Numbered from the stretch's first letter, positions 603-24,095 are shown. The stretch is 32,000 nt of DNA from Candidatus Heimdallarchaeota archaeon B3_Heim (GCA_003144275.1 NJBF01000006.1:30001-62000), one strand, 5' to 3'. Translations and numbers: made by a program. Notes: generated by a model not told the origin, from the letters alone.

Positions 603-763
603 AGAATTACCTGCTTTTCTTGAAATAATAGTCGATTTGAGATAAATATGATTCATACAAAAATTTGTTTCACTAAGAATTGGTTTCTTTCTTGGGAAAA
701 TATTACCACATTAATAATTTATTAAGAGTAAAACTTATTCTGTTTCTAAACGCGGTATTTCAA

Positions 764-6484: not shown

Positions 6485-6497
6485 ATCTTGATCTCAA

Positions 6498-7007: not shown

Positions 7008-7008
7008 C

Positions 7009-7947
7009 TCAGTGTATTAACCGATTTAAAACTGCCATTCGGGTGTAAACTCCATTTTTCGCTTGCTCAAAGTATTTTGCTTGTGGAAATCGATCAATAG
7101 CATAAGGAATTTCATCCACTCTTGGTAATGGATGCATAATAATTAAATCTTCTTTTGCGGCTTTCATTAAGTCAGGTCTAAGTTGGTAAGACTCTTTTAC
7201 TTTGTTATACAGCATTGGATCTGGGAATCGTTCTTTCTGTAATCGTGTAACATAGAGAACATCGAGACTACTAATTATTTCAGCAAGATTCGTTGCTTTA
7301 TGCATCTCTAAATCAGTTGATTCAAGATCGTAGACTAATTCGTCTTGTAAATGTAAAGACGGGTGAGATAGATAATAGATAGTGTTTCGACCAAATTTAC
7401 CTAGGGCAAATAATAATGAAGAAATTGTACGACTATACCGTAAGTCTCCAACAATACCTACATTAAGTCCTGATAACCTATGATGATATTCTTGAATTGT
7501 AAAAATGTCTAATAAAGCCTGAGTAGGATGTTCCTGACTTCCCGAACCTCCTGATATAACTGGAACTCCATATTTATCGGCAATTTTGGCTGCAAGCTTA
7601 CAACTACCTCTTAGTGGATGTCGCAGTACGATACAATCAGAATAACCTGCTAGCATAGTTATGGTATCAGACAGAGACTCACCTTTCTCGATTGAGGTTC
7701 CAGCTTGGCTTGAAAATCCTAATGTTTTACCTCCTAAACGAAGCATTGCACTTTCAAAAGATAATCTTGTTCGAGTACTTGCTTCCCAAAATGCTAAGGA
7801 CAATATTTTCCCTTTTAAAGCCTCTGCATATTTGGAAGGATTTTGTTTAATTTCAGATGCATCGTCTAAGATGCCTTGAATAAAATTTTCAGTCATGTAT
7901 CGAATACCAAAAATATGAGAGGTTTGGTGTTCAGTATCTTCATTCAT
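7009..7947 (-). CDS. pyrB: Aspartate carbamoyltransferase catalytic subunit
   Basis: EASTRTRLSFE, KGESLSDT, LRH, HPTQALLD, GDLRYSRT, TRLQKER, HPLPR. Confidence 0.97.
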   Translation of the reverse strand: MNEDTEHQTSHIFGIRYMTENFIQGILDDASEIKQNPSKYAEALKGKILSLAFWEASTRTRLSFESAMLRLGGKTLGFSSQAGTSIEKGESLSDTITMLAGYSDCIVLRHPLRGSCKLAAKIADKYGVPVISGGSGSQEHPTQALLDIFTIQEYHHRLSGLNVGIVGDLRYSRTISSLLFALGKFGRNTIYYLSHPSLHLQDELVYDLESTDLEMHKATNLAEIISSLDVLYVTRLQKERFPDPMLYNKVKESYQLRPDLMKAAKEDLIIMHPLPRVDEIPYAIDRFPQAKYFEQAKNGVYTRMAVLNRLIH

Positions 7948-8147
7948 TAGTATTTTTCTCCATGTTTATACGGATTGATGGTTCCAACATCCATATTCAA
8001 ATAACCATCAAATTTCAAAGGTGAAACATTATATCCAGTTGAATCTAGAATTTTTGCGAGGGAGGCAGCCAATAATCCTTTTCCCAACCCAGACATGACT
8101 CCCCCAGTGATTATGATATATTTAGGAGTTATTATCTTAGCCTCCAA
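7947..8147 (-). pseudogene. pyrG: CTP synthase N-terminal stub (66 codons), truncated after HGE
   Basis: [16 protein letters not shown]...[20 protein letters not shown] matches the PyrG N-terminus. It then ends KY-stop, with TAA overlapping the pyrB ATG (TAATG). About 85% of the enzyme is absent. Confidence 0.88.
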
Positions 8148-8390
8148 TAGTATTAGTGGATTTACTTAGGTTTTTGTATTCAAACAAGGTAGTTTTTCTA
8201 TTCTTATAAATGTAAGTCATTTATATCTATCATACTGATTGTAGGATTGTATACCCGAAATTCTCTATTACAAAATTCTTTTCTTTTTGACCTGTAGGTA
8301 ACATCAATCGAGGATTAAATTTCGGAGTAATGCGCTCTTTTTCATCCACTTTTAATTTAATGGATTAACCTGAGATGTTTTAGCCATTAT

Positions 8391-8432
8391 AAAAGGAAAA
8401 AAGGAGAGAGAAAGCAGATAGGAAAAAAAATA
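8391..8432 (-). terminator. Probable oligo-T terminator after the carbamoyltransferase gene
   Basis: A/G-rich plus-strand tract, read as T-rich runs on the minus strand 35-75 nt past the stop at 8468. Confidence 0.4.
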
Positions 8433-8467
8433 CACTTGAAAAATACCGAGATAGATAAGCCTCGGGA

Positions 8468-9532
8468 TTAATGCATAATACAGGCCATGACACCTTTTTG
8501 TGCATGTAGTCTGTTCTCTGCTTGATCAAAAATAATTGATCTAGGACCGTCGGCTACTTCATCATCTACTTCCATTCCTCGATCTTGCGGAAGGCAGTGC
8601 ATATAGTAACCTCGTCCATTCTTGGTCACATCCATAAGATCTACCGTAGTTTTCCAGTCTTTGTATTTATTCATGATTTCGGGCATGATATCGGGATTTG
8701 GTTCTCGAACACCTTCGAGTCCGTGAGCATCAAGGATTCCCCAACTTTTCGGATATACAAAATCAGCCCCTTCGAAAGCGGTCTTCATATCTCTTTCAAT
8801 TTCGAATGAACCGCCTTGGATATCAGAATACTCTTCCACTTTTTTGATGATATCAGGATGTAGATCAAAATCAGGTGGACAAGCCAAAGTTACATCCATA
8901 CCAAACATAGAAGGAGCGAGTACACCTGTTTGAGGAACAGCTAATGGCTTTTTTCCAGCTGAAAATGCCCAGCTCATTACAAACTTCTTTCCCTGTAATT
9001 TATTGAAGCTATGGCCACTTTTTTCATACATCGTCATTACATCAGCCATCCCTTGGCACGGATGGTAGACATCTGATTCCATGTTTATTATGGGTTTTTT
9101 GCTCCAATAAGCAAAGTTTTCTAGGATTTGCTGACCCTTGCCGTACATCCACTTACATTTACTTCCATAAATCCGAATGGCAATGGCATCACCCATCCGT
9201 GAAAGTACACGGGCGACATCAGAGACCCGCTCGGTTTCGTACGCGATTTCATCTCCCTCTAAAGCCGGGGTATATATCGCACCTGGTTGTAAAAAATGTG
9301 CATGACCTCCTAATTGAGTCATTCCAGCCTCAAACGAATTTCTTGTCCGTAAACTATCATTATAAAATACCATAAACAAAGTTTGAGCAGGAAGAATGTT
9401 TCTGTGATCTTCACGCATTGTGAACTTTTTTTTCAAATCGGTTCCTACACTAAGCATTGTTTCTAATTCTTCTCTTGTGAAATCAGTCATAGTGAGAAAA
9501 TCTCGTCCTGTTAAATCTTCAGTAACTACCAT
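8468..9532 (-). CDS. YgeW/ArgF'-like (knotted-type) carbamoyltransferase, substrate unknown
   Basis: Carbamoyl-phosphate motif SLRTRNSFE, HPCQGMAD and YMHCLP. Has SWAFSAGKKPLAVPQ and VYPKSWG instead of the ornithine SMG motif. Start re-set to ATG 9532, because the track's TTG at 9547 lies in the GAGGT ribosome-binding site. Confidence 0.85.
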   Translation of the reverse strand: MVVTEDLTGRDFLTMTDFTREELETMLSVGTDLKKKFTMREDHRNILPAQTLFMVFYNDSLRTRNSFEAGMTQLGGHAHFLQPGAIYTPALEGDEIAYETERVSDVARVLSRMGDAIAIRIYGSKCKWMYGKGQQILENFAYWSKKPIINMESDVYHPCQGMADVMTMYEKSGHSFNKLQGKKFVMSWAFSAGKKPLAVPQTGVLAPSMFGMDVTLACPPDFDLHPDIIKKVEEYSDIQGGSFEIERDMKTAFEGADFVYPKSWGILDAHGLEGVREPNPDIMPEIMNKYKDWKTTVDLMDVTKNGRGYYMHCLPQDRGMEVDDEVADGPRSIIFDQAENRLHAQKGVMACIMH

Positions 9533-10019
9533 AATATAAAACCTCAAAGGAAAATTAAGTTTTCAACGAAAATCTTCATCTAATTCAGTAAACTTTTGAT
9601 AGATGGTTAAAGGAATGTTGGTTTTATAAGTTAAAAACAATATTTCAATCAAAATTTACCTAATCTGTTTTATAATGGATGAAACGGATCATAGAATTCC
9701 TCAAATCGGCGTTTTTTCATCGGGGTCATTCAACAAATGAATATCGGATTTTGATCTTATTCTTTTTCTATTAATTTGTCCTCAGATGGAAATAATCGAT
9801 AACCAAGAGTAGTAGTCAAGTTATTTCAAAACCTCCTTGTAAAATTCATATTATTTTAGGATTAATGTTTAAATTTCCCCCCCATATTATGTTTGAAGCA
9901 TTTATTATTTTGATGGCACATCCTATTACTTTTAAAGATCCTTATTCATTAATTTCATTGATTCTATTAGTGAAAGATCAGAAAAGCATATTAAAAATCG
10001 TCATCTGGTAATACAGGGG

Positions 10020-11720
10020 ATGGTGGAATCAGATTTGAAGTTGATTAATCGATTTAGTATAAAAAATTCAAAATCAACCATAGAGAAACTAAGGGAGAAA
10101 ATTCAACCTAGTCATTTAGGATTTATTGGATTAGATGATAGCTGGATTGCTGAAAGTGATTGGATAGGATATATCGAATTGAAAAAATTCATTTTATCTG
10201 TTTCACATCCAGTAAGAGCTTACAAGATATGGGCTGAACTATTTACAGGTCAACCGATTTACAGTTGGACGAATAAACCCATATGGTGGTCCATCAACGT
10301 AAAACCAACAGAAACTGTCCTAAACTTGATTCCAGAGTTGGTAGACCAAACAATATTACTAAAGAACAATAAATTATATTTTAAGAAAGATGGTTTCTCA
10401 GGGAACGATCATTTTGTGAATGGTGTTTTAGCAGAATTTCGAAAGAACTTTGTATACAAATTGGATATGAAATTTCTAGGATTACCTAAGAAGAAACGCT
10501 ATTCAGAACTTAGAAGAGATTTATTTCATCAGTTCTATGAAAACTATGACAGAACTCACTTCTACAAATTACTATATAGAAAACAAAGACCATCTCTCTT
10601 TATATTAAATTTACCAAAATTGAAATTCCATCTATCCTGGGTAAGATTATATAATGAAACTAAGCGTAATCATGCTTGGAGAGGGGATAAAGGGGCTCTA
10701 AAAGTTAGACAAATTTTCAATTCGTTCCCTTATAGAAAAATATTAGATTTTGAACCTATTTCATATGCTGTTTCAACAAGTAAAATCAGTTATAAGAAAA
10801 TTCTTGATGAATTTAATAGTAATAGAAATTTGACCATTGATAGCATATTAAACTTCATCCAATCGTCACGAGGATCTTCAAGGATTTTCTTTAATGAGCT
10901 TATAGGAACAGAGGATGTTAAACCTCCTTTAATTGTGGAAACAAATAACATAAAGAAATATAGGAAAGAAAACTTCCCGAGAGGACAAGTTACAGTTATA
11001 CAAGCTGTATTTCAAAAGAATAAGATCATGAAATTCTTAAACGTGCATCATAATATTCATCTTCCCTTGAATGGCGTATATAAATTTAAAGGACAATCCA
11101 GAGGTAAATCTTCAACAACTACAACGATTTTTGAAGATATTTCAGCAACTACTGATACACTTGGATATCCTTTGCTGGAAAATGTTAATATTCTAATCAA
11201 AAATTCGACAGAATTCGTAAAGCAGAGATTGATTGAGGATCGACTATTTAAGCTTCTATCTTTCCCACCAAAGGAAAAATCTATCAATATTGTTGTCGAT
11301 GTCACCCATCCAGACAATCTAGAGGATGGAATATTGCAAGAATCACAGATAAAAGCAATAGAAAACCATAATTCGCCTACTCCGTTTGGATGGATAGATA
11401 TTGGTATCCATCTCGGAACAGAAGCTGAAGAGAATTTGTCTTCAGTTTATGGTGCAATCAAGTATTCAAGAAGTAAGAATCAATCTAAAGATCATGTAGA
11501 TACTGCTGAAAGGATTTTATTAAGTCATCATCTTACTGGAATTTCCAGGGATCTTATTACTAGGATGGATCGACTATTTCAAAAATATGAGATCCAGAAT
11601 TTCACACCAAGAGATTTAAACAAAAGAGAGTTTTTAGCTTTCACAATAGACTTTATAGATAATTTTCTGTCTTCTAATTCCCAAGCCGTCCCTCCTACTC
11701 CCGAATTTTCTGAATCCTAG
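10020..11720 (+). CDS. Hypothetical protein (566 aa, no family recognised)
   Basis: Long uninterrupted ORF in AT-rich DNA. Soluble, basic and aromatic-rich; no motif identified. Confidence 0.8.
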   Translation: MVESDLKLINRFSIKNSKSTIEKLREKIQPSHLGFIGLDDSWIAESDWIGYIELKKFILSVSHPVRAYKIWAELFTGQPIYSWTNKPIWWSINVKPTETVLNLIPELVDQTILLKNNKLYFKKDGFSGNDHFVNGVLAEFRKNFVYKLDMKFLGLPKKKRYSELRRDLFHQFYENYDRTHFYKLLYRKQRPSLFILNLPKLKFHLSWVRLYNETKRNHAWRGDKGALKVRQIFNSFPYRKILDFEPISYAVSTSKISYKKILDEFNSNRNLTIDSILNFIQSSRGSSRIFFNELIGTEDVKPPLIVETNNIKKYRKENFPRGQVTVIQAVFQKNKIMKFLNVHHNIHLPLNGVYKFKGQSRGKSSTTTTIFEDISATTDTLGYPLLENVNILIKNSTEFVKQRLIEDRLFKLLSFPPKEKSINIVVDVTHPDNLEDGILQESQIKAIENHNSPTPFGWIDIGIHLGTEAEENLSSVYGAIKYSRSKNQSKDHVDTAERILLSHHLTGISRDLITRMDRLFQKYEIQNFTPRDLNKREFLAFTIDFIDNFLSSNSQAVPPTPEFSES

Positions 11721-11913
11721 GAGGCCTTTATTTGTATGCAATTCTCTTAGCAATCCCTTTCTAGGGTAATCTCTCCTCATGTAGATGAACTTCAAATTTG
11801 TTATTGACACTAGCGAGCATAACATTTATGGATCTAAATCCTCTTTCCTAACATATAAGAGCAATGATAAACGTCTAGAGGTCCCATTATCAAGTTAATA
11901 AACCAGTATACTC

Positions 11914-13041
11914 TTAGCGTTTCGAAACTGCCCAGAAATAATTACGTCCATCTTGGATTAATTCAGCTTTCTGAAAAGGAGTGGATTCTATAAATTGTCT
12001 AAAACTTTTCTCATCATAGAAATGGGATCCAATTCCCACTTCAAACCATTTATGCATAATTTCATAATATTTTGCTTGATTCGGGGCATATATGTCCGGA
12101 ATCATATGTTCCCCAACAATTAAAAGCCCGTCATCCTTCAATAACGTGTAGAGGTTCTGAAAAACCTTCTGCCTGTAATTTTCTTTGGTATCCGTCTCGT
12201 GAAGCACCTGATTTAATACAATCACATCAAATTCATCGGAATGAGTCGATGTATAATCACTGGTTTCAGTACAGAGAATTTCTATTCTAGGTTTCCAATT
12301 ATGTTTATCTATGATTGTATTCGCATTCTCCACTGCCTGAGAATCAATATCAATTCCCACCATCTTCGAATTTGGATATTTTTTCGCCCAATTTTCCAAG
12401 TTAAACCCAAACCCACATCCTACTTCCAATAGCAAACCCCCATTATCTAGCCTATCTTTATGATCTTCACAATTTTCAGAAAATACTCTTTCGATTACTA
12501 ATCCCAATCCTGCACTCATTCGTTGTGTAACTTCTTTAATCTCATCAGGTAGTTCAAATGGGTTAAAATTTTCTCCAGTTTTGAAATTGGCTACAAAACG
12601 ATCTTGGAACACTGCCATATAATAGAACCCATGAAGAATATTTCCTATATAGAACAAATTCTCTTTGTCAACAAGTAAATAATAGATAAACGGAGCTGTC
12701 TTTATGCATTTCTTACAAGAATCGTCAATCTCAAACATCCCAAACTCTATTGCCATGTGAAGCCACCCATCTAAATAAATGGGGTCTAATCCTAATTCCA
12801 GAGCTAATTCATCAGGTGTAAAGTTGATCGATGAAAGTTCATTTCCCTCTGAAGAAATTGTTACTTTATTTTGTAAATATTCAAAAATCCCCAACCGTTG
12901 CCCTATCCCAAAAAGCAATATTGTTTGAAAACCTAACAAACCTTTGACAGCGAACTTCTTCAGTTGATCCCTGAGTGAAATTTCATCCTCATCGTTATTG
13001 GGATTCATTTTCTTACACATCTTAGCAACGATTGATTCCAA
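11914..13041 (-). CDS. Class I SAM-dependent methyltransferase with N-terminal winged-helix/dimerisation domain
   Basis: Motif I LLEVGCGFG, acidic GIDID, FDVIVLNQVLHE, LKDDGLLIVGE. N-terminal TPDELALELGLDPIYLDGWL helix-turn-helix. Start uncertain (TTG 13041 or a downstream ATG). Confidence 0.9.
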   Translation of the reverse strand: MESIVAKMCKKMNPNNDEDEISLRDQLKKFAVKGLLGFQTILLFGIGQRLGIFEYLQNKVTISSEGNELSSINFTPDELALELGLDPIYLDGWLHMAIEFGMFEIDDSCKKCIKTAPFIYYLLVDKENLFYIGNILHGFYYMAVFQDRFVANFKTGENFNPFELPDEIKEVTQRMSAGLGLVIERVFSENCEDHKDRLDNGGLLLEVGCGFGFNLENWAKKYPNSKMVGIDIDSQAVENANTIIDKHNWKPRIEILCTETSDYTSTHSDEFDVIVLNQVLHETDTKENYRQKVFQNLYTLLKDDGLLIVGEHMIPDIYAPNQAKYYEIMHKWFEVGIGSHFYDEKSFRQFIESTPFQKAELIQDGRNYFWAVSKR

Positions 13042-13056
13042 TCAAATTATTAGTGA

Positions 13057-13932
13057 TTACGGTAAAAGTTTCGTCATATCTTCATAGGTTTCGGGCCTGC
13101 GATCACGAAAGAACTGCCAATCTGTTCTGACTTCACCGATAAAATCGAGATCAAAGTCACAAATAATCAGTTCATCTTTATCCTGACTCCCTTCAGCTAT
13201 TATTTTTCCTTTCGGATCAACAAAATAGCTATTACCATAGAATTGACCTAAATTCCAAGGTTTTTCTTCCCCAACCCTGTTTATACAACCCATGAAAATT
13301 CCGTTAGCAACGGCATGAGCAGGCTGTTCTAATTTCCATAAGTATTGGGATACGCCAGCTACTGTTGCTGATGGATTATAAACAATCTCTGCGCCATTAA
13401 GAGCCAATAATCGTGCTCCTTCGGGAAAATGTCGATCATAGCATGTATATACCCCTATACATGCATATCGAGTATTAAAAGTGGGATAACCTAAATTTCC
13501 AGGTTTGAAAAAGAATTTTTCCCAGAAACCTGCAACATGCGGGATATGGTTTTTGCGATATTTTCCTAAATATCTGCCATCAGCGTCAATAACAGCAGCA
13601 GTATTATAAAAGACACCTGTCATTACCTCTTCATAAATCGGGACGACAATGACCATCTCATACTTTTTTGCATATTCCATCAATTTCTGAGTAGTGGGGC
13701 CTTCAGGGATCCTTTCAGCCGTTTTATACCACTTAGTATCCTGAGAGGGACAAAAATAGGGCGTATTAAAGATTTCTTGGAGACAGAGTATTTGAACTCC
13801 TTTTTCACCCGCTTCATCAATAAATTGTATATGTTTATTAAACATAGCTTGCTTAATTTCCTCAACAGAACCCTCTCCCTCTTGCATTGGTAGCGAACAT
13901 TGAATTAATCCACTTTTAATCATACGTACCAC
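13057..13932 (-). CDS. Beta-ureidopropionase (N-carbamoyl-beta-alanine amidohydrolase), nitrilase superfamily
   Basis: Glu-Lys-Cys triad: CLQEIF, YRKNHIP, CYDRHFPE. FWEKFFFKPGN motif. GGTGA ribosome-binding site plus GTG. Pyrimidine-degradation context. Confidence 0.88.
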   Translation of the reverse strand: MVRMIKSGLIQCSLPMQEGEGSVEEIKQAMFNKHIQFIDEAGEKGVQILCLQEIFNTPYFCPSQDTKWYKTAERIPEGPTTQKLMEYAKKYEMVIVVPIYEEVMTGVFYNTAAVIDADGRYLGKYRKNHIPHVAGFWEKFFFKPGNLGYPTFNTRYACIGVYTCYDRHFPEGARLLALNGAEIVYNPSATVAGVSQYLWKLEQPAHAVANGIFMGCINRVGEEKPWNLGQFYGNSYFVDPKGKIIAEGSQDKDELIICDFDLDFIGEVRTDWQFFRDRRPETYEDMTKLLP

Positions 13933-14019
13933 TATAGTTCACCTTTAAATTTCGTTAAGATGCAATATTATTCTTTTTATGAATTCCTGAATTTAAACAA
14001 TACTAATACTTCTTGATAA

Positions 14020-15360
14020 TTACTCTAGGTAATATTTTTCTGCTTCACTTAAAGCTCTTTCAATGATGGTTATACCTTCTTGAATTTGTTCTTCTGTTAT
14101 AATCAATGGAGGTGCACAGAAGATCCAATTCCATCTAACAAAGGTGCTCAACCCGTTTTCCCGCAAGATCTTTGCAACTTTCTGCATAGGTTCCGTAAGT
14201 GGACTGTTGAAGGGACTTAAGGGTTGACGGGTACCCCGATTCTTAACTAATTCAATAACATAATGCAATCCGATACCACGAATCTCACCTACAACTTGAT
14301 ATTTCTCATGAAGCTTCATCAATTCTGTATAAAGATTTTTTCCCATTTCCTCTGATCGTTTTATCAGATTATCGTTTTGATAAACCTCAATATTGGCAAC
14401 AGCAGCCGCACATCCAAGGGTGTGAGAGCTATTAGTTAGACCACACCAGAGTACATTATCATCAAAATGGGAGGCGATCTCTCCTGAAACTACTGCTGCA
14501 CCAAGTGGTACATAAGCACTAGTAATACCCTTTGCAAGGCACATAATATCTGGTTTGACTTGTGGTTGATGGTTAATTCCAAACCATTTACCAGTCCTGC
14601 CAAAACCACTCATTACCTCATCAATAATCAACAAAATATTGTATTTGTTACAAATCTCCTGAATACGATCCCAAAAGACCTTTCCACCTTGCATAATACC
14701 GCTGGATCCACTATATCCCTCAAGTAATATTGCGGCAACATTTTGTGGACCTTCAAACAGGATTGTTTCTTCAATAAGGTCTGCGATGACAGAATCACCT
14801 TCTTCTACTGTTTTATTCCGATATATAGGATTTCGGTAAGCATATGGACCATGAACATAAACAATCCAAGGAAGTCCTGGCTCATTAGCCAAACGACGAG
14901 GATCTCCTCCTGCGGTCATTGCACCAAAGGTTCCTCCATGATAAGAACGGTAACGAGTAATAATTTTTTGACGACCCGTATACAAACGGGCGATTTTCAT
15001 AGCATTTTCAATAGCTTCAGCCCCTCCATTAGTGAAAAATGCTTTACAGTCCTTCATTGGAACGATTTCATTAAGCATTTCACCCAACCGAGCTCGCGCT
15101 TCAGTAGCTATACTTGGAGAGACATAGCAAAATTTGGCTAGCTGATCTTGGATTGCCTGATTTACATATTGATTCCCATGCCCAATGTTTACATTGATTA
15201 ATTGAGAAGACCAGTCTAGATGTTTTTTCCCCTCTGTATCCCAAAGATATACTCCTTTTGCTTTTTCTATGGCAATCGGATTCCAGCTTGATTGAGATTT
15301 CCAACTTGACAATGTATATTTCTTATTTTTTTCAACCATTTCATTTTGAGTCATACCCAT
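14020..15360 (-). CDS. Class III PLP aminotransferase, probable beta-alanine aminotransferase
   Basis: SYHGGT, LIIDEVMSGFGRTG, PLP lysine CLAKGITS. Lies between the ureidopropionase and malonate-semialdehyde dehydrogenase genes. Confidence 0.88.
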   Translation of the reverse strand: MGMTQNEMVEKNKKYTLSSWKSQSSWNPIAIEKAKGVYLWDTEGKKHLDWSSQLINVNIGHGNQYVNQAIQDQLAKFCYVSPSIATEARARLGEMLNEIVPMKDCKAFFTNGGAEAIENAMKIARLYTGRQKIITRYRSYHGGTFGAMTAGGDPRRLANEPGLPWIVYVHGPYAYRNPIYRNKTVEEGDSVIADLIEETILFEGPQNVAAILLEGYSGSSGIMQGGKVFWDRIQEICNKYNILLIIDEVMSGFGRTGKWFGINHQPQVKPDIMCLAKGITSAYVPLGAAVVSGEIASHFDDNVLWCGLTNSSHTLGCAAAVANIEVYQNDNLIKRSEEMGKNLYTELMKLHEKYQVVGEIRGIGLHYVIELVKNRGTRQPLSPFNSPLTEPMQKVAKILRENGLSTFVRWNWIFCAPPLIITEEQIQEGITIIERALSEAEKYYLE

Positions 15361-15387
15361 AATTCGTTCACCAGATTTTAATTTCCA

Positions 15388-15789
15388 CTACTTTTCTTCT
15401 GATAAATTTTTAAGGTTACTATGTTCTTTTTGACATCGCTTTAACACACGTCTAGTCTCTAAAACATTGATCTTAGGTGTAACATCGAAATAAAAGGTGA
15501 TTACCTGCTTTTCCAGGGTATCTATCTCTTGAGGGGATGTACCTGACAGATTCAACTGATACTTTTTTTCATCCAACCCTTCGATTGGTTCAAGGGTTAT
15601 CTCCGTTATGTTTTCTCTACGAGACCGTTCTAACCTTTGTTTACGTTTTACACATGCTTTTGCTCTTTTTGAAAACTCCTCAGAAAGGGCCCCATTCTCT
15701 TTGGAGGCTAATTCTTTGTATAATTCCTCCAATTTTTCTTCTAAAAGAATTGCAAAAGATAAAATTGATCCAAATTGTGTTAAAGACAC
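15388..15789 (-). CDS. Ferritin/rubrerythrin-like four-helix protein with degenerate metal site
   Basis: FAILLEEKLEELYKELA resembles rubrerythrin helix 1 (E-x6-Y). C-terminal CQKEH. Predominantly helical; GTG start with an upstream GAGTGG site. Confidence 0.6.
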   Translation of the reverse strand: MSLTQFGSILSFAILLEEKLEELYKELASKENGALSEEFSKRAKACVKRKQRLERSRRENITEITLEPIEGLDEKKYQLNLSGTSPQEIDTLEKQVITFYFDVTPKINVLETRRVLKRCQKEHSNLKNLSEEK

Positions 15790-15847
15790 CTATTCCACTC
15801 AGTTCCTTAGTATAAGCCAATCTTTAAAGATAAATTCGATGATAAAT

Positions 15848-17299
15848 TTATACCCACCGCTCTATTACTACTTTGTAATCTGTATAAAAGCGAACAGAAT
15901 CTGGGCCTTGTCCATGTAAATCTCCGAAGAATGAATCATTTTTACCACCAAAAGGAAAAGAAGCAGTTGCTGCGGCTACGCCAACATTGACACCAATATT
16001 CCCTGCATTTACCCGATATTTGAATTCTCGAGCATAACCACCTTTTTGGGTAAAAATGCTGGCAGCATTTCCATAATTAGAAGCATTAATAGTTGTTACC
16101 GCTGTTTCAAAATCAGGAACATGAATTATACTCATAACTGGTCCAAAAATTTCTTCTTGTGCTAGTGTCATATCAGGAGTTACTTTATCAAAGATAGACG
16201 GGCCAATAAAATTTCCAGTTTCATATCCGTCAACCACTAGATTACGACCATCTAACAATAATTCCGCTCCTTCATCTATACCTTTTTTAATCATCCCAAG
16301 AATGCGTTCTTTTGATTTTTGGGTTGCTATAGCTCCCATTTGGCTTGCATCATCGAGCCCATAACCCACCTTGAGTTTTCTGGCTGCAGTTAACAATTCT
16401 TTTTTCAAAGATTCATAAATATCTCCTACAGCAAGTACAACTGAACCCGCCAGACAACGTTGTCCCGCGCAGCCATAAAATGAACCCATTATATTCGGGA
16501 CGGCAGTAGCCAAATTAGCATCAGACATCACGGCAAGGTAATTCTTGGCACCACCTTGAATTTGGACTCTCTTCCCATGCTTAGTAGATTTCTCATAGAT
16601 GATTTTTCCTACAGTCGAGGAACCCACAAAAGAAACTCCCTTCACATCAGGATGTTCCATTAAGGCATTAGCTGCATCCACACCTCCGTGGACTAGGTTT
16701 ACAACTCCTTCAGGTAATTCCACTTCTTCCCAAAGTTTAAAAACATAATCCATCGTTAGAGGAGTAGTAGGCGATGGTTTCACAACCATAGTGTTACCAC
16801 ATGCAATTGCAACTGGTAAAAACCACATAGGAACTAAAAATGGGAAATTAAACGGAGCTAACATTGCAAAAACTCCGAGAGGTTGGCATTCTGCTGTTTC
16901 ATCTATACCTGATGAAATATCTTCAACTTTAAATCCTGTCATTAACGAGGGGACACTAAAGGCAAACTCAACGCTCTCAATTCCTCTCCTAACTTCACCC
17001 CTTGCCTCATCTATTGTTTTACCAGCCTCCTTAACAACAAGTTTTGATATCTTTTCAAAATGTTCTTCTAATAAATTTTTAAACGTCATCAGGTATCGAG
17101 TACGACTAAGGACAGGTGTTTGTCTCCATTCCACATAAGCTGTGGATGCTGCATTGACTGCACGCTTAACATCATCAGGTGTTGAATCAGGACATTCCGC
17201 GAGAACTTCTTGAGTTCCAGGATTTATCACTGGGGTGAATTTCTCAGTTGTAGCTTCGACCCATTCTCCATTAATCAGATTTCTCAGTTGGGTGGTCAT
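15848..17299 (-). CDS. mmsA: CoA-acylating (methyl)malonate-semialdehyde dehydrogenase
   Basis: APFNFP, VKPS, SFVGSS, RVQIQGGAKNY, catalytic GCAGQRCLA, EEIFGPV, YGNAASIFT, SFFGDLH. Confidence 0.93.
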   Translation of the reverse strand: MTTQLRNLINGEWVEATTEKFTPVINPGTQEVLAECPDSTPDDVKRAVNAASTAYVEWRQTPVLSRTRYLMTFKNLLEEHFEKISKLVVKEAGKTIDEARGEVRRGIESVEFAFSVPSLMTGFKVEDISSGIDETAECQPLGVFAMLAPFNFPFLVPMWFLPVAIACGNTMVVKPSPTTPLTMDYVFKLWEEVELPEGVVNLVHGGVDAANALMEHPDVKGVSFVGSSTVGKIIYEKSTKHGKRVQIQGGAKNYLAVMSDANLATAVPNIMGSFYGCAGQRCLAGSVVLAVGDIYESLKKELLTAARKLKVGYGLDDASQMGAIATQKSKERILGMIKKGIDEGAELLLDGRNLVVDGYETGNFIGPSIFDKVTPDMTLAQEEIFGPVMSIIHVPDFETAVTTINASNYGNAASIFTQKGGYAREFKYRVNAGNIGVNVGVAAATASFPFGGKNDSFFGDLHGQGPDSVRFYTDYKVVIERWV

Positions 17300-17399
17300 G
17301 GTCTTTCTATTCCTCTTTTTTCTAATAATTTCTTCTAAAGTTATTTCTCATTATTTACTGTAGGCTATTTGATACTTTTTGAATTGGATGAAAGTTACA

Positions 17400-18794
17400 T
17401 TATAAAAAGTTGCCTGAGAAACCTCTTTTCACAAATTTCCCATAACCTTTTTCTCCCACGCATTTTCCTTCCTTTCCGACGACTTTACCCCTTACAATGG
17501 TTAGATAAGGATAACCTTGTAGCTGTTTATCTTGAAAAGGACTCCAATCACAGTTAGTCTCCATTTTTCGATAATCCACAGTTAAATTAATCTCAGGATC
17601 AAAAACAACTAAATCTGCATCGGCTCCGATGTTAAGAGATCCTTTCTGTGGGTACATTCCAAATACTTTGGCTGGATTTGTACTTCCAAGCTCAACCATT
17701 TTATTGAGAGAAATTTTTCCAGTCCTAACCCCATCGTTATAAAGTAAGGGCATCATCAACTCAGTTCCAGGTAGTCCAAAAGGTATCTTAGTGAAATCAC
17801 CGTTCCACATGTTCTTTTGTTCAGTGTTGAATGTGCAGGTATCAGTTCCAATAGTTTGGACTGAACCATCTCGTAAGCCTGCCCATAATCGTTGTCCATC
17901 GGCTTCACTTTTTATCTGAGGACAAGTGGCAAAATAATGGCCGTTATCACCTTTAAAAACATCTTCATTTAATATCAAGTATTGGGGGCCTGTTTCTGCT
18001 ATAACATTCACCCCTCGTGCTCTTGCCGCTTTTACTAAATCAGCACCTTCACCTGTAGACATATGCACTATGAACAAGTGCCCTCCAGTATACTCAGCCC
18101 ATGTAATGGCTCTCTGAATAGCTTCAGCTTCAATAATGTTAGGTCGGGTGATAACATGGAGCCAAGCACCGTGTTTCTCCATTTCTTCTTGTGTATGATG
18201 TTTAGCAATTAATGAATCCAATAAATCTACTGATTCGGCATGAACTTGAATCATTCCCCCTAGTTTCTTTGTCACCTCCAGAGCGTCGATAAGGACTGGA
18301 TCTGTCGTAAGCCAGCCTTCACTCTTATAAATCATGAACATTTTGAATGAGCTAATTCCATCTTTAATTATCTCGGAAATTTCTTGTCTAGTACTTGCAT
18401 TCCAATCAGTGATACCTCCATGAAGCGAATAATCTACAAACACTTCCCCGTCAGCTTCAGCTTTCCTACTCTTAATGGCATCCTTGAGTGAACTTCCCTT
18501 GGCTTGAATAGCAAAGTCAACGACCGTTGTTACTCCACCAGCTGCTGCAGCTCTTGTACCTGTTTCAAAAGAATCTGCTGAAATTGTACCACTAAAGGGT
18601 AGAGAAAGATGTACATGTGCATCTATGAAACCAGGCAAAACAAATTTCTCGGATGCATCTATAATTCTACTTCCATTATCAGGTGTCAAATTTCCTATAG
18701 TTTGTACTTTACTGTCTTTAATACCAATATCAGCGACATAAGAATCACTGGCTGTGACAATTGTTCCATTCTTTACAATTAAATCCATCTTCAT
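17400..18794 (-). CDS. hydA: Dihydropyrimidinase (D-hydantoinase)
   Basis: IDAHVHL, AAAGGVTT, SFKMFM (carbamylated Lys), VHAES, IVHMST, AETGPQYL, GTDTC, PFGLPG. Confidence 0.94.
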   Translation of the reverse strand: MKMDLIVKNGTIVTASDSYVADIGIKDSKVQTIGNLTPDNGSRIIDASEKFVLPGFIDAHVHLSLPFSGTISADSFETGTRAAAAGGVTTVVDFAIQAKGSSLKDAIKSRKAEADGEVFVDYSLHGGITDWNASTRQEISEIIKDGISSFKMFMIYKSEGWLTTDPVLIDALEVTKKLGGMIQVHAESVDLLDSLIAKHHTQEEMEKHGAWLHVITRPNIIEAEAIQRAITWAEYTGGHLFIVHMSTGEGADLVKAARARGVNVIAETGPQYLILNEDVFKGDNGHYFATCPQIKSEADGQRLWAGLRDGSVQTIGTDTCTFNTEQKNMWNGDFTKIPFGLPGTELMMPLLYNDGVRTGKISLNKMVELGSTNPAKVFGMYPQKGSLNIGADADLVVFDPEINLTVDYRKMETNCDWSPFQDKQLQGYPYLTIVRGKVVGKEGKCVGEKGYGKFVKRGFSGNFL

Positions 18795-19073
18795 AACTCC
18801 TTGTCTTATTATTCCAATGATTTTGATAATTGTTGAATTCTCATAATAATAAATAAAGAAAGTAATGATTTGTAGAGTTTATTCAACCAATCTATAAAAA
18901 GAACAGGAAAAATACATTGATTATATTTTTTTCTACCAGTTTTCATATCTGAATAACAATTCTTCTATAAGTAATGGTACAATTTCAGAGGAATTTTTAA
19001 TTGAAGAGAAATTTGTCTTGAAGTACTTTTCCTTGTATCTAGATGATACTTTAGGGCTATATTATAGAAGAGC

Positions 19074-20252
19074 GTGATATTTTTGCCAGGTTTGAACGTA
19101 AATTTTGCTGGTGTCGAGTTTGAGAATCCATTTCTACTGTCCTCTGCACCACCAACGAAAGATGGAACTCAAATTAAAAGAGCTATCGAATTGGGTTGGG
19201 GTGGTGCGGTAACAAAGTCATTACTCCTAGTTCCAGATAAAAATACGAGACCTAGATTAGGATTTCTGAAGTTAGGCAAACGGATGATAGGAATGAGTAA
19301 TATTGAAATGGCTACAGAATTGTCTCTAGAACGATGGAAGAAGGAAATAGTTATCGCTAAAACACCTGGTGCTCCGATTATAGGATCTATCATGACAGAT
19401 TCAGATCCAGAAAACTGGGTAAAGCTGACAAAAATAGTTGAAGAAACTGGAGTTGATATGCTTGAATTAAATGTTTCTTGTCCCCATATGTCTCCTGAAA
19501 AACATATGGGCGCCTTAATAGGACAAGATTCAGCATTAATTACTTTAATAACTAAAAATGTTAAAGAAAATTGCTCAATTCCCGTCATTGTAAAATTAAC
19601 CCCCAATGTAACTAGTATCCCAGACATGACAATTGCTGCAAAAACTGGTGGTGCAGACGCTATTTCAGCTATCAATACTGTACTATCTCTAATCGGAGTG
19701 GATATTGAGACAGGAATACCCAATCCAAGTTCCCAAGGAAAATCCACTTTTGGAGGTTATTCAGGACCTGGTGTAAGACCCATTGCTCTGAGAGTTGTCG
19801 CAGAAATCGCACAAACAACTAATTTACCAATATCAGGAATAGGAGGCGTTGATAGTTGGAAATCAGCTATTGAGTTCATAATGGTTGGAGCAACAACAGT
19901 ACAAGTATGCACCGCAATCATGTGGAGAGGTTATAAAATTGTTGAGAATTGGAAAAAGGGATTACAGAGTTTCATGGAAAGAAAAGGTTATCGTTCTTTA
20001 AATGAATTTACAGGTAAATCTTTGCAATTTCTCCATCCTTTTTCAGATTTTAAGACTGAACCGCCCATAAAAGCGAGAGTAACACATGCAGATAGCTGTA
20101 ACGGGTGTGGAATTTGTGTGACTTCTTGTGGAGATGGTGCTTATAATGCTATCACATTAGAAGATTCTGATGTAGCAATTGACGATCAAATTTGTGATGG
20201 ATGCGGTTTGTGTGTGAATGTTTGCCCTCAAAATGTTATGACTATGGGTTGA
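19074..20252 (+). CDS. preA: Dihydropyrimidine dehydrogenase FMN/Fe-S subunit PreA
   Basis: NPFLLSSAP, GWGGAVTKS, ELNVSCPH, VKLTPN, FGGYSGPGVRP, two C-terminal [4Fe-4S] motifs CNGCGICVTSC and CDGCGLCVNVCP. The start may be the TTG at 19083. Confidence 0.93.
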   Translation: MIFLPGLNVNFAGVEFENPFLLSSAPPTKDGTQIKRAIELGWGGAVTKSLLLVPDKNTRPRLGFLKLGKRMIGMSNIEMATELSLERWKKEIVIAKTPGAPIIGSIMTDSDPENWVKLTKIVEETGVDMLELNVSCPHMSPEKHMGALIGQDSALITLITKNVKENCSIPVIVKLTPNVTSIPDMTIAAKTGGADAISAINTVLSLIGVDIETGIPNPSSQGKSTFGGYSGPGVRPIALRVVAEIAQTTNLPISGIGGVDSWKSAIEFIMVGATTVQVCTAIMWRGYKIVENWKKGLQSFMERKGYRSLNEFTGKSLQFLHPFSDFKTEPPIKARVTHADSCNGCGICVTSCGDGAYNAITLEDSDVAIDDQICDGCGLCVNVCPQNVMTMG

Positions 20253-20261
20253 TCTCTTGAT

Positions 20262-20300
20262 GAGAAAGAAAAAGCCATCTTTCTCTCACTTCTTTTTCTC
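20262..20300 (+). terminator. Probable terminator after preA (8-bp stem plus T-rich tail)
   Basis: GAGAAAGA (20262-69), 8-nt loop, TCTTTCTC (20278-85), followed by CTTCTTTTTCTC. Confidence 0.5.
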
Positions 20301-20409
20301 ATCCTTTGCTCCTCTTTTTCAATCAGAGTTGGTATTATTCAAAAATTAGTAGAGGTAGTTTTAATAGGAGATTTCACAATAGTTAATTCAAATAACAAGG
20401 TGGTTAAAT

Positions 20410-20904
20410 ATGCCTGAAAAAATTATTCAAGGTGAAAGTAAGCTTAAAGTGGGTGATGAAGCCCCAGATTTTGTTCTCCCAGCACAAGATGGGAAAAAAA
20501 TTCGTTTGTCAGATTATCGTGGAAAAAAGAATGTAATGTTAGCATTCTATCCTCAAGATTTTACTCCTGTATGTTCACATCAGCTTCCTTCTTATAGTAA
20601 ACAAATCAATAAGTTTGAGGAATTGAATACTCAAGTATTAGCCATTGGAGTGGCCTCAATTCCAGTCCACATTGCATGGATTGATTCTTTAGGAGGATTA
20701 AACTACCCATTATTGGCAGATTGGGTACCCGCAGGAGATGTAAGCAAAAAATATGATGCATTTATTCCAAAAATCGGATTTGGTAAAAGGGCGATCTTCA
20801 TCATTGATAAAGAAGGAATAATTCAGTATATTGATATTCCCCACGAGCTAAATGAAGGGCCCCCAGATGAAGCAAAGATCTTTGTTGCGTTAAAAAACCT
20901 TTAA
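20410..20904 (+). CDS. 1-Cys peroxiredoxin (AhpE/AhpC-TSA family)
   Basis: [17 protein letters not shown] (peroxidatic Cys, the only Cys), [15 protein letters not shown] ribosome-binding site. Confidence 0.92.
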
Positions 20905-20975
20905 AGCTAAGAATTTTTCCCTTCTTCTTTTTTCTGTTTTATTATAGCTGTTTTATTTGTGTGAAACTGCCCGTC

Positions 20976-22328
20976 TTAGAGTGGAACGACTCTTGGTGTT
21001 AAATCCAATCTATCCCATAATTTGATAGCCGAATCTTTCGATTGTTGACTGACTTGACTAGCATCAAGGGAAGTATGGATACCATTTTTAACTATCGTTT
21101 TCCCATTCACGACTACTCGCTTGATATCTCTTCGTGAAAACGAACCGTATACCATATGTCCGTACACATTTCCTTCGTGTATGGGGGTAGGTAAAGCAGA
21201 GGTATCTAAAATGACAAAATCTCCTTTTTTACCCACTTCAATTGATCCAATTTGATCCTTTAACCCTATTGCCTGTGCAGCATTAATCGTGATCATTTGA
21301 ACTACCTGTAAGGGTGTGGGAACCTGACTCGGATTTAGGTGATTCAACTTATGCATAAGATAGGCTGTTCGCATATTCTCAATTGCATCGTAAATGAATC
21401 CATCATTCCCTACACCGATGTTTATCCCCTTTTCCAGCATCTCAGGTAATTGAGCAACACCAACCGCGTTAAGTTCATTACTCTTCGGATTATGGGCAAC
21501 ATTTGTATTTGTTTCAGCAATTAGGTCAATTTCACGTTGATTAATATGTACAGCATGAGCGAGAGCTGTTCTTGATCCAAGGAATCCTTCATCATATAGC
21601 CGCTCTACTGTACGTTTTCCATATCTCTCAAGATTGTGTTGAAGGTCAACGAGTCCTTCAGAAGTATGAATTGTCCTAAAAGAATTTGTCTTATCAGCAT
21701 ATTCAACCGTTTTATGCATCAATTCATCTGATACTGTGAAAGATGCGTGCAAACAATAAATACCATAAACAAGCGTTTTTTCAGGATTATTTTGAGAGAT
21801 GAATCTGCGATTTTCCTCTAATCCTCTTCTCCCTTCTTCTTGAGATCGTCGTTCAGTTTGTTCAAAACAAACTGCTCCTCGTGTGCCAACGTCTTGTGTG
21901 GCTTTACTGATTCGATCAAGTGATCCTTCAATAGCATTTGGGCCAGAATAAGTATCTAAGTAAGCAGTAACTCCATTTAATGCTAATTCATATACTGCAT
22001 ACAATGTAGATGTATAAGCATCTTCTAATGTGAGAGCTTCATCCATGGGCCACCAAATTCGTTGTAAATTCTGAGTAAAATCGGTAGGGGGTAAAATGTT
22101 CATTGGTGCGCCCCTAAGTAACGCTGAATACAAGTGTGTATGAGCACAGATAAATCCAGGAAAAATCACCTGATTTTTACAGTCTAATATCTCATCAGCT
22201 TTTTCTTTGATCTCTTTGTCAATTCTGACGATTTCTCCTCCCTCAACTAATACATCCATGGGTAATTTTATTTCGTTATCTGCATTCATGGTTACAACTA
22301 AACCATTTTTTAGTAATAGACTTTCCAT
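20976..22328 (-). CDS. ssnA: SsnA-like metal-dependent amidohydrolase (nucleobase-ring hydrolase/deaminase family)
   Basis: FPGFICAHTHLYS, DFTQNLQRIWWPMDEAL, LHASFTV, IHTSE, HNPKSN, GNDG. Start re-set to ATG 22328, which has GGAG upstream. Confidence 0.75.
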   Translation of the reverse strand: MESLLLKNGLVVTMNADNEIKLPMDVLVEGGEIVRIDKEIKEKADEILDCKNQVIFPGFICAHTHLYSALLRGAPMNILPPTDFTQNLQRIWWPMDEALTLEDAYTSTLYAVYELALNGVTAYLDTYSGPNAIEGSLDRISKATQDVGTRGAVCFEQTERRSQEEGRRGLEENRRFISQNNPEKTLVYGIYCLHASFTVSDELMHKTVEYADKTNSFRTIHTSEGLVDLQHNLERYGKRTVERLYDEGFLGSRTALAHAVHINQREIDLIAETNTNVAHNPKSNELNAVGVAQLPEMLEKGINIGVGNDGFIYDAIENMRTAYLMHKLNHLNPSQVPTPLQVVQMITINAAQAIGLKDQIGSIEVGKKGDFVILDTSALPTPIHEGNVYGHMVYGSFSRRDIKRVVVNGKTIVKNGIHTSLDASQVSQQSKDSAIKLWDRLDLTPRVVPL

Positions 22329-22649
22329 CTTTATATCTCCGCAAAATATTTGTTTGGAATTATCCACATCGAATTTCTTACTATGCTTTGCGATATGAGG
22401 GTTAAAAGAATTAAACATTGTGGAGAAAAGATTCATCGAAAAATCAAAGAAAATTTCTTATTTGGTGCAATAATTCATCATTCATGCTCCTGAGAGTATT
22501 CATTGAAGGATTTTTCAGAATGTATTTTTATAAGGTATCTCACGTTCTCTCAAAGGATAGGAGATATAAAGGTAATATTGTGATGAATGATACATTGTCG
22601 AACAAGAATTACGATTGAAATAAATGATTAAATGTTATGAGGACATATT

Positions 22650-24095
22650 ATGATAAAAATTAGACATTTCGCTCTACTTCTTTCTTTCACATTAGCCTTT
22701 TCTTTCCTATTTCTAATGGTTGAAGGAAAGGAAACAACTTATGGAACTAATTTCAGATTTTCAAATGAATTTTCATCTCAAGACGCTTTCAAATCATTAA
22801 ATCAGATCTATTCAAGTTACCCGAGTCATACTGATATTCCCAAAGCAAATTTTACGGGTACATATAATGTAACACTGTTTGTCAATCCCGATAATGCTGA
22901 AGAGGTTATTTTTCGTTATCTGTCAAGTGCTCAATCGTCAGTATTTGTATCCATGTATACTATCAGCAGACCTGATTTTAATCAAACACTTATTGACTTG
23001 AAAACTTCAAATCCCTCAATTAATATTAGTGTATTAATCTCAGATCGAAGAGTTGGTAGTACTGAGAACAGGGATACCGCAGCAGCTGCTCAATCTCTTG
23101 TTGATACTGGAATACCCGTTTTTTCCTCAACTACAGACGATGACAAAGTTGATGGGTTTTATCATGCAAAATATTGGATTATCGACGGAAAGCACGTCTT
23201 TGTATATTCGGGAAATTGGAGTCCCCGCAGTGTTACACCTTATGAGGAAACATTCAGTTCTTCAGAAGGGAATCGAGATATGGGAATCGCGGTGCATGAT
23301 GCTCCAGACATTGCTCAGTTTTTTAAAAATGAAGTATGGGAAAAAGATGTTGCGGTTGCAAATGTTTGGTCAACAACAGCGATCAAAGCCAGTTTAAATA
23401 AATTTAATTCTTCTAAAGTTTCACTAAAGATTAATTCTCCCCAACTTTACTCTCCAATTTTTAATTCAACCAATATTATGGGAGAGATGACATTATCTCC
23501 GATGTTTACTCCTGATAATGCATTAGATATTCACAAAGCATGGATAGATAGTGCTACATCTACCATTGAGATTCAAAATCAATATATTACCCAATTTGAT
23601 GATAATGTACCTTGGGATGATGATCCTTCTCCCCTGGTTCGTTCCCTAGTAAATGCTCATAATAGAGGCGTTCAGATTCGTATCCAGGTGAACGAGGACA
23701 GTGATTCAGATGATATTTCAGAATATCTTGCCAATAAAGGTATTGAGGTAAAATGGATGGGTAATTCATCTAGTAGCACTGATGGGTGGTTATCAGATAC
23801 CCACAATAAACTGCTCATAATTGATGGAGAGGCGACTTTACTCTCATCTATAAATTTTGGTGAAAATGGTTTCACAAATAATCGTGAAGCAGGAATGGTA
23901 ATCCAAAATACAAATGTAGCGAATTATTACTTATCAATATTTGATGCAGATTGGATAGATGGAGAAATTCCTCCCTATGTTGTCATTACAGATACTACAA
24001 CAACAACCGAAGAGCCGATTACTTCTCCCTATTCTTGGATTGCAGTTTTAATTTCATTTTTCTCAATTAAAATCATTCGGAGGCAAAAAAAATAG
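22650..24095 (+). CDS. Secreted, C-terminally anchored phospholipase D superfamily protein
   Basis: Two HKD motifs (YHAKYWIIDG...SGN; THNKLLIIDG...SSIN). N-terminal hydrophobic signal; C-terminal TTTTT linker, hydrophobic helix and RRQKK. Confidence 0.9.
   Translation: MIKIRHFALLLSFTLAFSFLFLMVEGKETTYGTNFRFSNEFSSQDAFKSLNQIYSSYPSHTDIPKANFTGTYNVTLFVNPDNAEEVIFRYLSSAQSSVFVSMYTISRPDFNQTLIDLKTSNPSINISVLISDRRVGSTENRDTAAAAQSLVDTGIPVFSSTTDDDKVDGFYHAKYWIIDGKHVFVYSGNWSPRSVTPYEETFSSSEGNRDMGIAVHDAPDIAQFFKNEVWEKDVAVANVWSTTAIKASLNKFNSSKVSLKINSPQLYSPIFNSTNIMGEMTLSPMFTPDNALDIHKAWIDSATSTIEIQNQYITQFDDNVPWDDDPSPLVRSLVNAHNRGVQIRIQVNEDSDSDDISEYLANKGIEVKWMGNSSSSTDGWLSDTHNKLLIIDGEATLLSSINFGENGFTNNREAGMVIQNTNVANYYLSIFDADWIDGEIPPYVVITDTTTTTEEPITSPYSWIAVLISFFSIKIIRRQKK

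Follow-up and report, generated by a model that had tools for sequence, protein, structure and literature searches.

Whether an Asgard archaeon can degrade pyrimidine bases all the way to acyl-CoA, which electron donor would drive the reductive first step, and whether such a pathway says anything about the ancestry of its eukaryotic counterpart are the questions raised by a six-gene cluster of Candidatus Heimdallarchaeota archaeon B3_Heim. The cluster occupies positions 13057-20252 of a 32,000-nucleotide stretch of DNA (GCA_003144275.1, NJBF01000006.1:30001-62000), referred to here as the window, and comprises five co-oriented genes on the minus strand and a divergent preA on the plus strand. 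The reading that we favor, and regard as probable, is that of a functional extended Pyd cluster in which the first enzyme, dihydropyrimidine dehydrogenase (DPD), is represented by PreA only, and which resides on an accessory mosaic island without bearing on the eukaryotic pathway.

The cluster and its predicted pathway

Open reading frame (ORF) calling on the window, with coordinates counted over the whole stretch (Table 1), returned the six ORFs exactly where the initial annotation had placed them, the divergent preA included. Four of the six encoded proteins (PreA, dihydropyrimidinase, MmsA and the aminotransferase) pass the curated NCBIfam cut-offs for the expected functions, and the catalytic motifs checked in the hydrolase, PreA, HydA, MmsA and the aminotransferase are present, as had been claimed. 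A residue alignment shows that PreA keeps the equivalents of K574, N609, E611, N668, S670, C671, K709, N736 and T737 of pig DPD. In alignments of cluster homologues the binuclear metal ligands of the dihydropyrimidinase HydA (H60, H62, K151, H185, H244 and D318) and residues D247 and K277 of the aminotransferase are invariant, and the G-Q-R-C282 motif of MmsA, which holds the catalytic Cys282, is invariant in 11 cluster homologues. Among solved structures, HydA matches bacterial D-hydantoinases and dihydropyrimidinases best (~350-360 bits), and homologues of the aminotransferase co-cluster in bacterial pyd loci.

With these assignments, uracil or thymine would be reduced by PreA and the ring opened by the dihydropyrimidinase; the nitrilase-type hydrolase would then yield beta-alanine (or beta-aminoisobutyrate) together with NH3 and CO2, the class-III aminotransferase would produce malonate (or methylmalonate) semialdehyde, and MmsA would form acetyl-CoA (or propionyl-CoA). 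The five-step route from uracil to acetyl-CoA is already known in bacteria (PMC7332683, Fig. 1C and ref. 5), and in the literature searched we found no paper tying Asgard archaea, Thorarchaeota or Hodarchaeales to pyrimidine degradation. The gene roles and the overall route from uracil to acetyl-CoA (thymine to propionyl-CoA) given in the initial annotation are upheld by the family cut-offs, the catalytic residues and a clustering that is kept in bacteria and in other Asgard archaea. Its description of the pathway as complete goes too far, as the PreT half of the first enzyme is found neither in the window nor in the genome.

The hydrolase has Drosophila beta-alanine synthase as its best solved match (205 bits), and its tetrad E53/K127/E138/C164 aligns with E119/K196/E207/C233 of human beta-ureidopropionase (beta-UP), an enzyme for which the roles of the catalytic tetrad and of the regulatory residues H173 and H307 have been described (PMC10741476). 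It is 74-81% identical to proteins of Bacteroidota, Verrucomicrobia, Deltaproteobacteria, Neomarinimicrobiota and CSSED10-310. In fact, where these relatives lie on long bacterial contigs they sit in full pyd clusters with PreT-PreA, in the order Aldedh-aminotransferase-NCS1-SSF-dihydropyrimidinase-hydrolase-PreT-PreA or, in a second cluster, Aldedh-small ORF-hydrolase-dihydropyrimidinase-aminotransferase-PreT-PreA, and this genomic context offers the strongest indirect support for a presumed beta-ureidopropionase function. Elsewhere, apparent natural fusions of a beta-UP-like CN_hydrolase domain occur among proteins P0268, P0392-P0421, P0492, P0459 and P0443, the partners being a DegT-type aminotransferase (~683 aa, many cases), Amidohydro_1 (791 aa), an aldehyde dehydrogenase and an NCS1 permease.

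Another feature of the cluster is a gene for a protein of 133 aa located directly after mmsA. Homologues are found directly 3' of mmsA in the second Hodarchaeales contig described below (L016), in L072 and L073 and in five Thorarchaeota loci, with 67% identity in the other Hodarchaeales contig and 32-38% in two bacterial clusters. An AlphaFold2 model of the protein (mean confidence, pLDDT, 87) is a four-helix bundle whose best match in the Protein Data Bank (PDB) by Foldseek is TM1526 (1vjx; TM 0.77, E 9e-4); further structure matches are Dps-like, structural neighbors in the Atlas carry Ferritin_2 or Rubrerythrin, and six of nine family members match Pfam Ferritin_2 weakly. The family begins with an invariant FG..FA...E and has a strongly conserved loop, LERxRRENxTEMxLEPIxGLD. 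The label "ferritin-like" proposed earlier is thus appropriate at the level of the fold, but does not extend to the diiron site, given that the E...ExxH ligands are not conserved and that the nine-member alignment contains no invariant His. The gene goes with one clade of (methyl)malonate-semialdehyde dehydrogenases (MSDH; 11 rows, support 100), in which a downstream small ORF was confirmed in 9/9 members examined, and no homologue is present on the contigs of two more distant bacterial MmsAs. The conserved occurrence of a ferritin-fold gene directly after mmsA in both Asgard and bacterial clusters is new here. In one congener (L054; G059 contig C150, 70-2983) a 3.2-kb contig carries the ferritin-fold gene and the aminotransferase gene, with 74% and 79% identity, and next to them, in the place of the hydrolase, a radical-SAM gene; the module may be incomplete or have another composition.

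The attribution to an Asgard host is confirmed. The nearest homologues of PreA and of the hydrolase carry the NCBI name Candidatus Hodarchaeales. Elsewhere the window likewise has an archaeal and Asgard-like content: rpoK, genes for two thermosome subunits and for a Vps22-like protein, and a set of de novo pyr genes. Contamination or mis-binning was ruled out: the two flanks align colinearly with congeners along a single 110-kb contig, and a second Hodarchaeales contig (114 kb) with the same cluster in another context also contradicts it.

Table 1. Features of the pyd cluster and of the segment that carries it (positions in the 32,000-nucleotide window; a dot marks features without strand)
Feature	Position	Strand	Remarks
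Accessory segment, 10.7 kb, with orf566, methyltransferase and pyd cluster	9536-20261	.	Not in closest congener
orf566, 566-aa basic orphan, left island end	10020-11720	+	No Pfam match; no usable Atlas match; Atlas model pLDDT 0.29
Class-I S-adenosylmethionine-dependent methyltransferase	11914-13041	-	Pfam Methyltransf_12/31/25; no evident pathway link
CN_hydrolase, beta-ureidopropionase-like (PydC-like), bacterial type	13057-13932	-	291 aa; Pfam E 7e-62
Class-III aminotransferase, putative beta-alanine aminotransferase (PydD-like)	14020-15360	-	Aminotran_3; NF004718 485 vs cut-off 472
Ferritin-fold four-helix protein, 133 aa	15388-15789	-	ORF alone: no significant family match
MmsA/MSDH, CoA-acylating (methyl)malonate-semialdehyde dehydrogenase	15848-17299	-	TIGR01722 540 vs 448 bits
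HydA, dihydropyrimidinase/D-hydantoinase (PydB)	17400-18794	-	TIGR02033 466 vs 393
Intergenic region hydA/preA, divergent, presumed promoters	18795-19073	.	AT-rich, TATA-like runs, read directly
PreA-only dihydropyrimidine dehydrogenase, 392 aa	19074-20252	+	NF006183 432 vs 335 bits

PreA and its electron donor

The PreA of the cluster consists of a DHO_dh domain, which starts at residue 7, followed by Fer4 only, that is, by one C-terminal 2x[4Fe-4S] domain with two CxxCxxCxxxC motifs, the only pair of Cys motifs in the protein. An N-terminal Fe-S domain is found neither in PreA nor elsewhere in the cluster or genome; likewise, PreT or any other NAD(P)H-oxidising FAD component is not present in the window, and none was recognised in a PF14691 search of the genome. 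Lacking PreT and the N-terminal Fe-S domain, PreA therefore needs another electron donor, and we hypothesize that ferredoxin, or another low-potential carrier, is the one most likely to deliver electrons to its C-terminal clusters. In fact, a DPD without FAD domain, PydAc of Clostridium chromiireducens, has been shown experimentally to reduce uracil with reduced ferredoxin (PMC7332683).

This architecture is not restricted to the window. PreA with a nearby hydrolase or dihydropyrimidinase was found on an Anaerolineae contig, on a Heimdall contig and at 16 further Asgard loci (one of them with PreA only), and at none of these Anaerolineae, Heimdall or further Asgard loci does PreT occur within 8-10 kb. 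Clusters that have these five enzymes but no PreT are recurrent among Asgard genomes. Matches to PreA were obtained in 10/19 genomes of family f12 and in 49/89 genomes of three further families, among them f31 (Thorarchaeota by NCBI name) and f32.

The alternative that survives best, although we consider it unlikely, accepts the same pathway but supposes that NAD(P)H, instead of ferredoxin, reduces PreA by way of an NfnB/SudA-like GltD homologue encoded elsewhere. The PF14691 (Fer4_20) proteins of the genome are two GltD-like proteins and an 859-aa fusion, and the GltD homologues do carry the Fer4_20 and FAD domains of the PreT type and share homology with PreT and with the DPD N-terminal half. 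Nevertheless, all three proteins are encoded on other contigs, the GltD homologues in operons of their own, and each of the two GltD-like proteins adjoins an NfnA/PyrK-like partner, as in Nfn/Sud-like pairs. They score as NADPH-dependent glutamate synthase or Nfn-type proteins and not as PreT, no such gene is located near any of the 19 PreT-less clusters examined, and the characterised FAD-less DPD takes ferredoxin, as mentioned above.

On contig C87 of this genome (G000; 67947-71243 and 73940-76560; L013), two neighboring pairs of NfnB/SudA-like and NfnA/PyrK-like proteins adjoin NuoF-like and NuoG/formate-dehydrogenase-like genes; a thioredoxin-reductase-like domain forms part of one of the NfnA-like proteins, a fusion of 615 aa.

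Accessory island and mosaic ancestry

The comparison with related genomes shows that the cluster is part of an indel. In the closest relative, G063, whose Pyr proteins are 99-100% identical, window segments 5122-9535 and 20262-24004 are colinear on contig C73 with 94-95% identity by blastn and lie 235 bp apart. When the other 21 species of the genus were searched at the DNA level, the flanks turned up but the pyd cluster did not; PreA was found in 0/21 congeners (E <= 1e-60) and the hydrolase in 0/23 other genomes of the order (E <= 1e-80), so that the cluster occurs in 1/24 Hodarchaeales species genomes, the species representatives compared being 70-99% complete. A second Hodarchaeales contig (L016) carries the same six genes, with 67-87% identity, in a different neighborhood and without the methyltransferase gene beside the cluster. 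In the reading favored here, the cluster is an accessory catabolic trait, carried as cargo of a variable segment in one Hodarchaeales lineage.

No direct repeats or tRNA were found flanking the island ends, and the ORFs scanned gave no integrase-like Pfam match. With a GC content of 0.363 the island is close to the genome mean (0.361), and the cluster, at 0.38, falls in the top 8% of 7.2-kb windows; being within the range of the genome, this value gives no foreign signal. The lack of end marks and the unremarkable GC fit an exchange between low-GC relatives better than a recent import from bacteria, a direction and timing that we infer.

Across the genus, the interval between the YgeW-like carbamoyltransferase gene and the peroxiredoxin (Prx)/SsnA genes (window 8468-9547 and 20410-22436) measures 0.24, 0.35, 3.1, 6.5 or 10.7 kb (L051, L052, L053 and L055), with different cargo in each genome. 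YgeW and Prx are likewise adjacent in G060, 3.1 kb of other genes separate them in G061, and in G066 the same interval holds 6.5 kb with TrmB, a methyltransferase, a GNAT protein and a PALP (YgeX-like) enzyme. Since both length and content differ among congeners, the YgeW-SsnA interval is a variable spot. YgeW, SsnA and carbamate kinase (window 3-656) are kept where the pyd island is lacking, and thus form a separate ureide or purine-type module.

The distribution of the island also bears on an anabolic use of the genes, in which the first three steps would mainly supply beta-alanine for coenzyme A instead of serving carbon and nitrogen catabolism. There is precedent for it in some bacteria, in which the beta-alanine of pantothenate comes from uracil degradation (PMC7142369). 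However, the genes for the aminotransferase and for the CoA-acylating dehydrogenase have the same orientation as the hydrolase gene and are kept alongside it in Thorarchaeota and bacteria, and a trait absent from 23/24 genomes of the order is a poor fit to an essential cofactor route, which leaves this use improbable.

We attribute even less weight to the idea that the cluster degrades other ureides or carbamoyl compounds, with a hydantoinase and carbamoylase core converting 5-substituted hydantoins to amino acids or acting on N-carbamoylputrescine; this is very improbable. The hydrolase passes no curated NCBIfam model, and its best match is AguB (TIGR03381), but the score of 239 bits is far under the cut-off of 410. 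Its motifs RKNHIP, CYDRHFP and NPSAT correspond to RKNHIP, CYGRHHP and NPSAT of animal beta-UP, in contrast to RKSHIP, CWDQWFP and YPTA of the N-carbamoylputrescine amidase of Medicago, and agmatine deiminase (PF04371) had no match in the 94%-complete genome, which disfavors a role in carbamoylputrescine metabolism. The solved structures that HydA matches best carry the name D-hydantoinase, which speaks for this idea; against it, every residue of the uracil site is kept in PreA. Finally, the nearby genes of ureide metabolism (SsnA, YgeW-like carbamoyltransferase and carbamate kinase) could suggest such a role, but SsnA and YgeW are conserved in congeners without the island and are therefore independent of it.

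The origin of the genes was addressed with phylogenetic trees. In the hydrolase tree (111 full-length rows, IQ-TREE quick search with a mixture model) the two Hodarchaeales sequences pair (support 99) and lie inside a clade of 64 rows (SH-aLRT 94); those of its members that have names come from bacteria of several phyla and from one Thermoplasmata metagenome-assembled genome. The Heimdall, Thorarchaeota and f12 hydrolases are placed apart, in a group (84) that also includes an Anaerolineae sequence and two further cluster representatives. Monophyly of the Asgard hydrolases was rejected in an approximately unbiased (AU) test with 38 rows under LG+G4 (delta lnL 84.6, p-AU 0.002). The PreA tree, rooted with PyrD, points the other way: the PreT-linked bacterial PreAs branch first, followed by stand-alone Chloroflexota sequences and then by an all-Asgard clade (98), within which Hodarchaeales are placed with Heimdall and with a Thorarchaeota subgroup. 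HydA groups with Thorarchaeota and f12 sequences (99), and the aminotransferase with bacterial pyd aminotransferases (100), the Thorarchaeota type belonging to another subfamily. Taken together, the trees suggest that the cluster is a mosaic of Asgard-type preA and hydA and of bacterial-type hydrolase and aminotransferase genes. The island and this mosaic origin are new here.

A Thorarchaeota genome with an ordinary cluster carries in addition, at L071 (G372 contig C67, 161-9229), a second divergent set of genes lying side by side, made up of two class-III aminotransferases and of HydA-like (31%), PreA-like (37%) and YgeW-like carbamoyltransferase (36%) proteins.

The initial annotation had also expected these genes to bear on whether the eukaryotic pathway is of archaeal or bacterial ancestry, an expectation that would lapse if they nested deep in one bacterial clade. 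Such relevance is not sustained: the hydrolase does nest among bacteria, though in a clade that spans several phyla, the genes lie on an accessory island in 1/24 genomes, and the hydrolase is devoid of the N-terminal extension and regulatory loops specific to eukaryotes. Using bit scores against solved structures, which are a weak proxy for eukaryotic affinity, the window hydrolase scores 205/186 bits against Drosophila/human beta-UP, a protein of a bacterial cluster reaches 210/200 and a Thorarchaeota one 194/192, and HydA scores 348-360 bits against Bacillus D-hydantoinases, 352 against the bacterial dihydropyrimidinase 3sfw and 286-289 against the human and Dictyostelium dihydropyrimidinases; the scores of both proteins to eukaryotic enzymes are thus no higher than those of, or to, bacterial counterparts. 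Because it is a patchy, mosaic and partly bacteria-derived island, the cluster says little about the origin of the eukaryotic pathway. That the pathway is old, was passed on vertically within Asgard archaea and is ancestral or sister to the eukaryotic DPYD-DPYS-UPB1-ALDH6A1 route would agree with the Asgard clades formed by PreA and HydA, with the best solved match and active-site motifs that the hydrolase shares with animal beta-UP and with a PreA score to pig DPD marginally above that of one bacterial PreA, but is extremely improbable in view of an island confined to one of 24 genomes of the order, a bacterial-type hydrolase for which Asgard monophyly is rejected and which lacks the eukaryotic N-terminal 70 residues and the H173/H307 loops, beta-UP scores no higher than bacterial ones, a HydA closer to Bacillus than to eukaryotic enzymes, and a PreT half that eukaryotic DPD has and all Asgard clusters lack.

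Several points weigh against the interpretation as a functional, mosaic Pyd cluster. No ferredoxin gene is present on the island. The genome, 94% complete, yielded no nucleobase permease of the NCS1 (PF02133) or NCS2 (PF00860) type, and turnover of the cell's own nucleotides may therefore be the sole source of substrate. The best solved match of the aminotransferase is taurine:2-oxoglutarate aminotransferase (6jix, E 1e-100), and because this closest solved relative acts on taurine the amine substrate is left unsettled. As to ancestry, all trees result from quick searches with prokaryotic sequences only, and the MmsA tree gives no resolved placement. In the HydA, MmsA and aminotransferase trees the bacterial rows come only from contigs chosen through the hydrolase, a narrow sampling owing to which closer bacterial relatives of HydA and MmsA are possible. 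Likewise, PreA scores 235 bits against pig DPD and one PreT-linked bacterial PreA 218, a difference too small to interpret.

Even so, the fermentation of pyrimidine bases to acyl-CoA is probably within the capacity of some Asgard archaea, a point of relevance to how these sediment organisms live on nucleic-acid debris. We further put forward, as a tentative proposal that is possible but falls short of probable, that the 392-aa PreA-only form of Asgard and Chloroflexota pyd clusters represents a further, undescribed class of DPD, driven by ferredoxin or another low-potential carrier through two Fe-S clusters only, and the ferritin-fold protein encoded after mmsA in Hodarchaeales, Thorarchaeota and some bacterial pyd clusters an unrecognised pathway component. 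Both would serve an anaerobic, fermentative type of pyrimidine degradation, widespread in Thorarchaeota and exchanged between Asgard archaea and bacteria. Two biochemical targets are raised by the cluster, namely a minimal DPD without NAD(P)H module or N-terminal Fe-S domain and a ferritin-fold protein tied to malonate-semialdehyde dehydrogenase. It also calls for caution in arguments on eukaryogenesis: an apparently "eukaryote-like" pathway of Hodarchaeales is a patchy mosaic island with bacterial parts, and its presence in this order is for that reason no argument that the eukaryotic route arose in archaea.

Comparison with known systems

The extended Pyd pathway of Bacillus megaterium, with PydA, PydB, PydC, beta-alanine aminotransferase and MSDH, has the same five steps and enzyme families, also encoded in a cluster (Zhu et al. 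2020, cited in PMC7332683). The bacterial pyd clusters related to that of the window share with it a 74-81% identical hydrolase, a homologous aminotransferase and, in two of them, the ferritin-fold gene; they differ in having an NAD(P)H-dependent PreT-PreA and often an NCS1 permease, whereas in the window PreA stands alone and no permease is found. The PreT-less pyd clusters of Thorarchaeota (L019 and L057-L069) have the same enzyme set, a PreA-only first enzyme and a ferritin-fold gene after mmsA, but another gene order, an aminotransferase of another subfamily (~30% identity) and a hydrolase of another clade (56-60% identity), and they are common in their families, whereas the cluster of the window is rare in its order.

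Compared with the animal enzymes, human UPB1 (6ftq and 8pt4) and the Drosophila enzyme (2vhh), the hydrolase has the same nitrilase fold, the tetrad and the RKNHIP, CY(D/G)RH and NPSAT motifs, but is devoid of the N-terminal extension of ~70 residues, the alignment starting at human residue 70, and of the insertions that carry H173 and H307. PreA shares with E. coli PreT-PreA and with pig DPD (PDB 1gt8) the FMN/uracil site, including the equivalent of Cys671, and the C-terminal 2x[4Fe-4S] domain; in contrast to the E. coli and mammalian enzymes it has neither a PreT subunit nor an N-terminal half, and it belongs to a separate Asgard clade, whose sister group is made up of the stand-alone PreAs of Chloroflexota. 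With PydAc of C. chromiireducens, an organism whose energy metabolism is ferredoxin-based, it has in common the lack of an FAD/NAD(P)H domain and the location in a Pyd cluster. PydAc, however, retains both ferredoxin-like domains and thereby four [4Fe-4S] clusters (PMC7332683), whereas in the PreA of the window the FMN domain comes first and the C-terminal domain, with two clusters, is the only one of its kind; for this reason, the PreA of Asgard archaea and Chloroflexota constitutes a further reduced variant of the enzyme.

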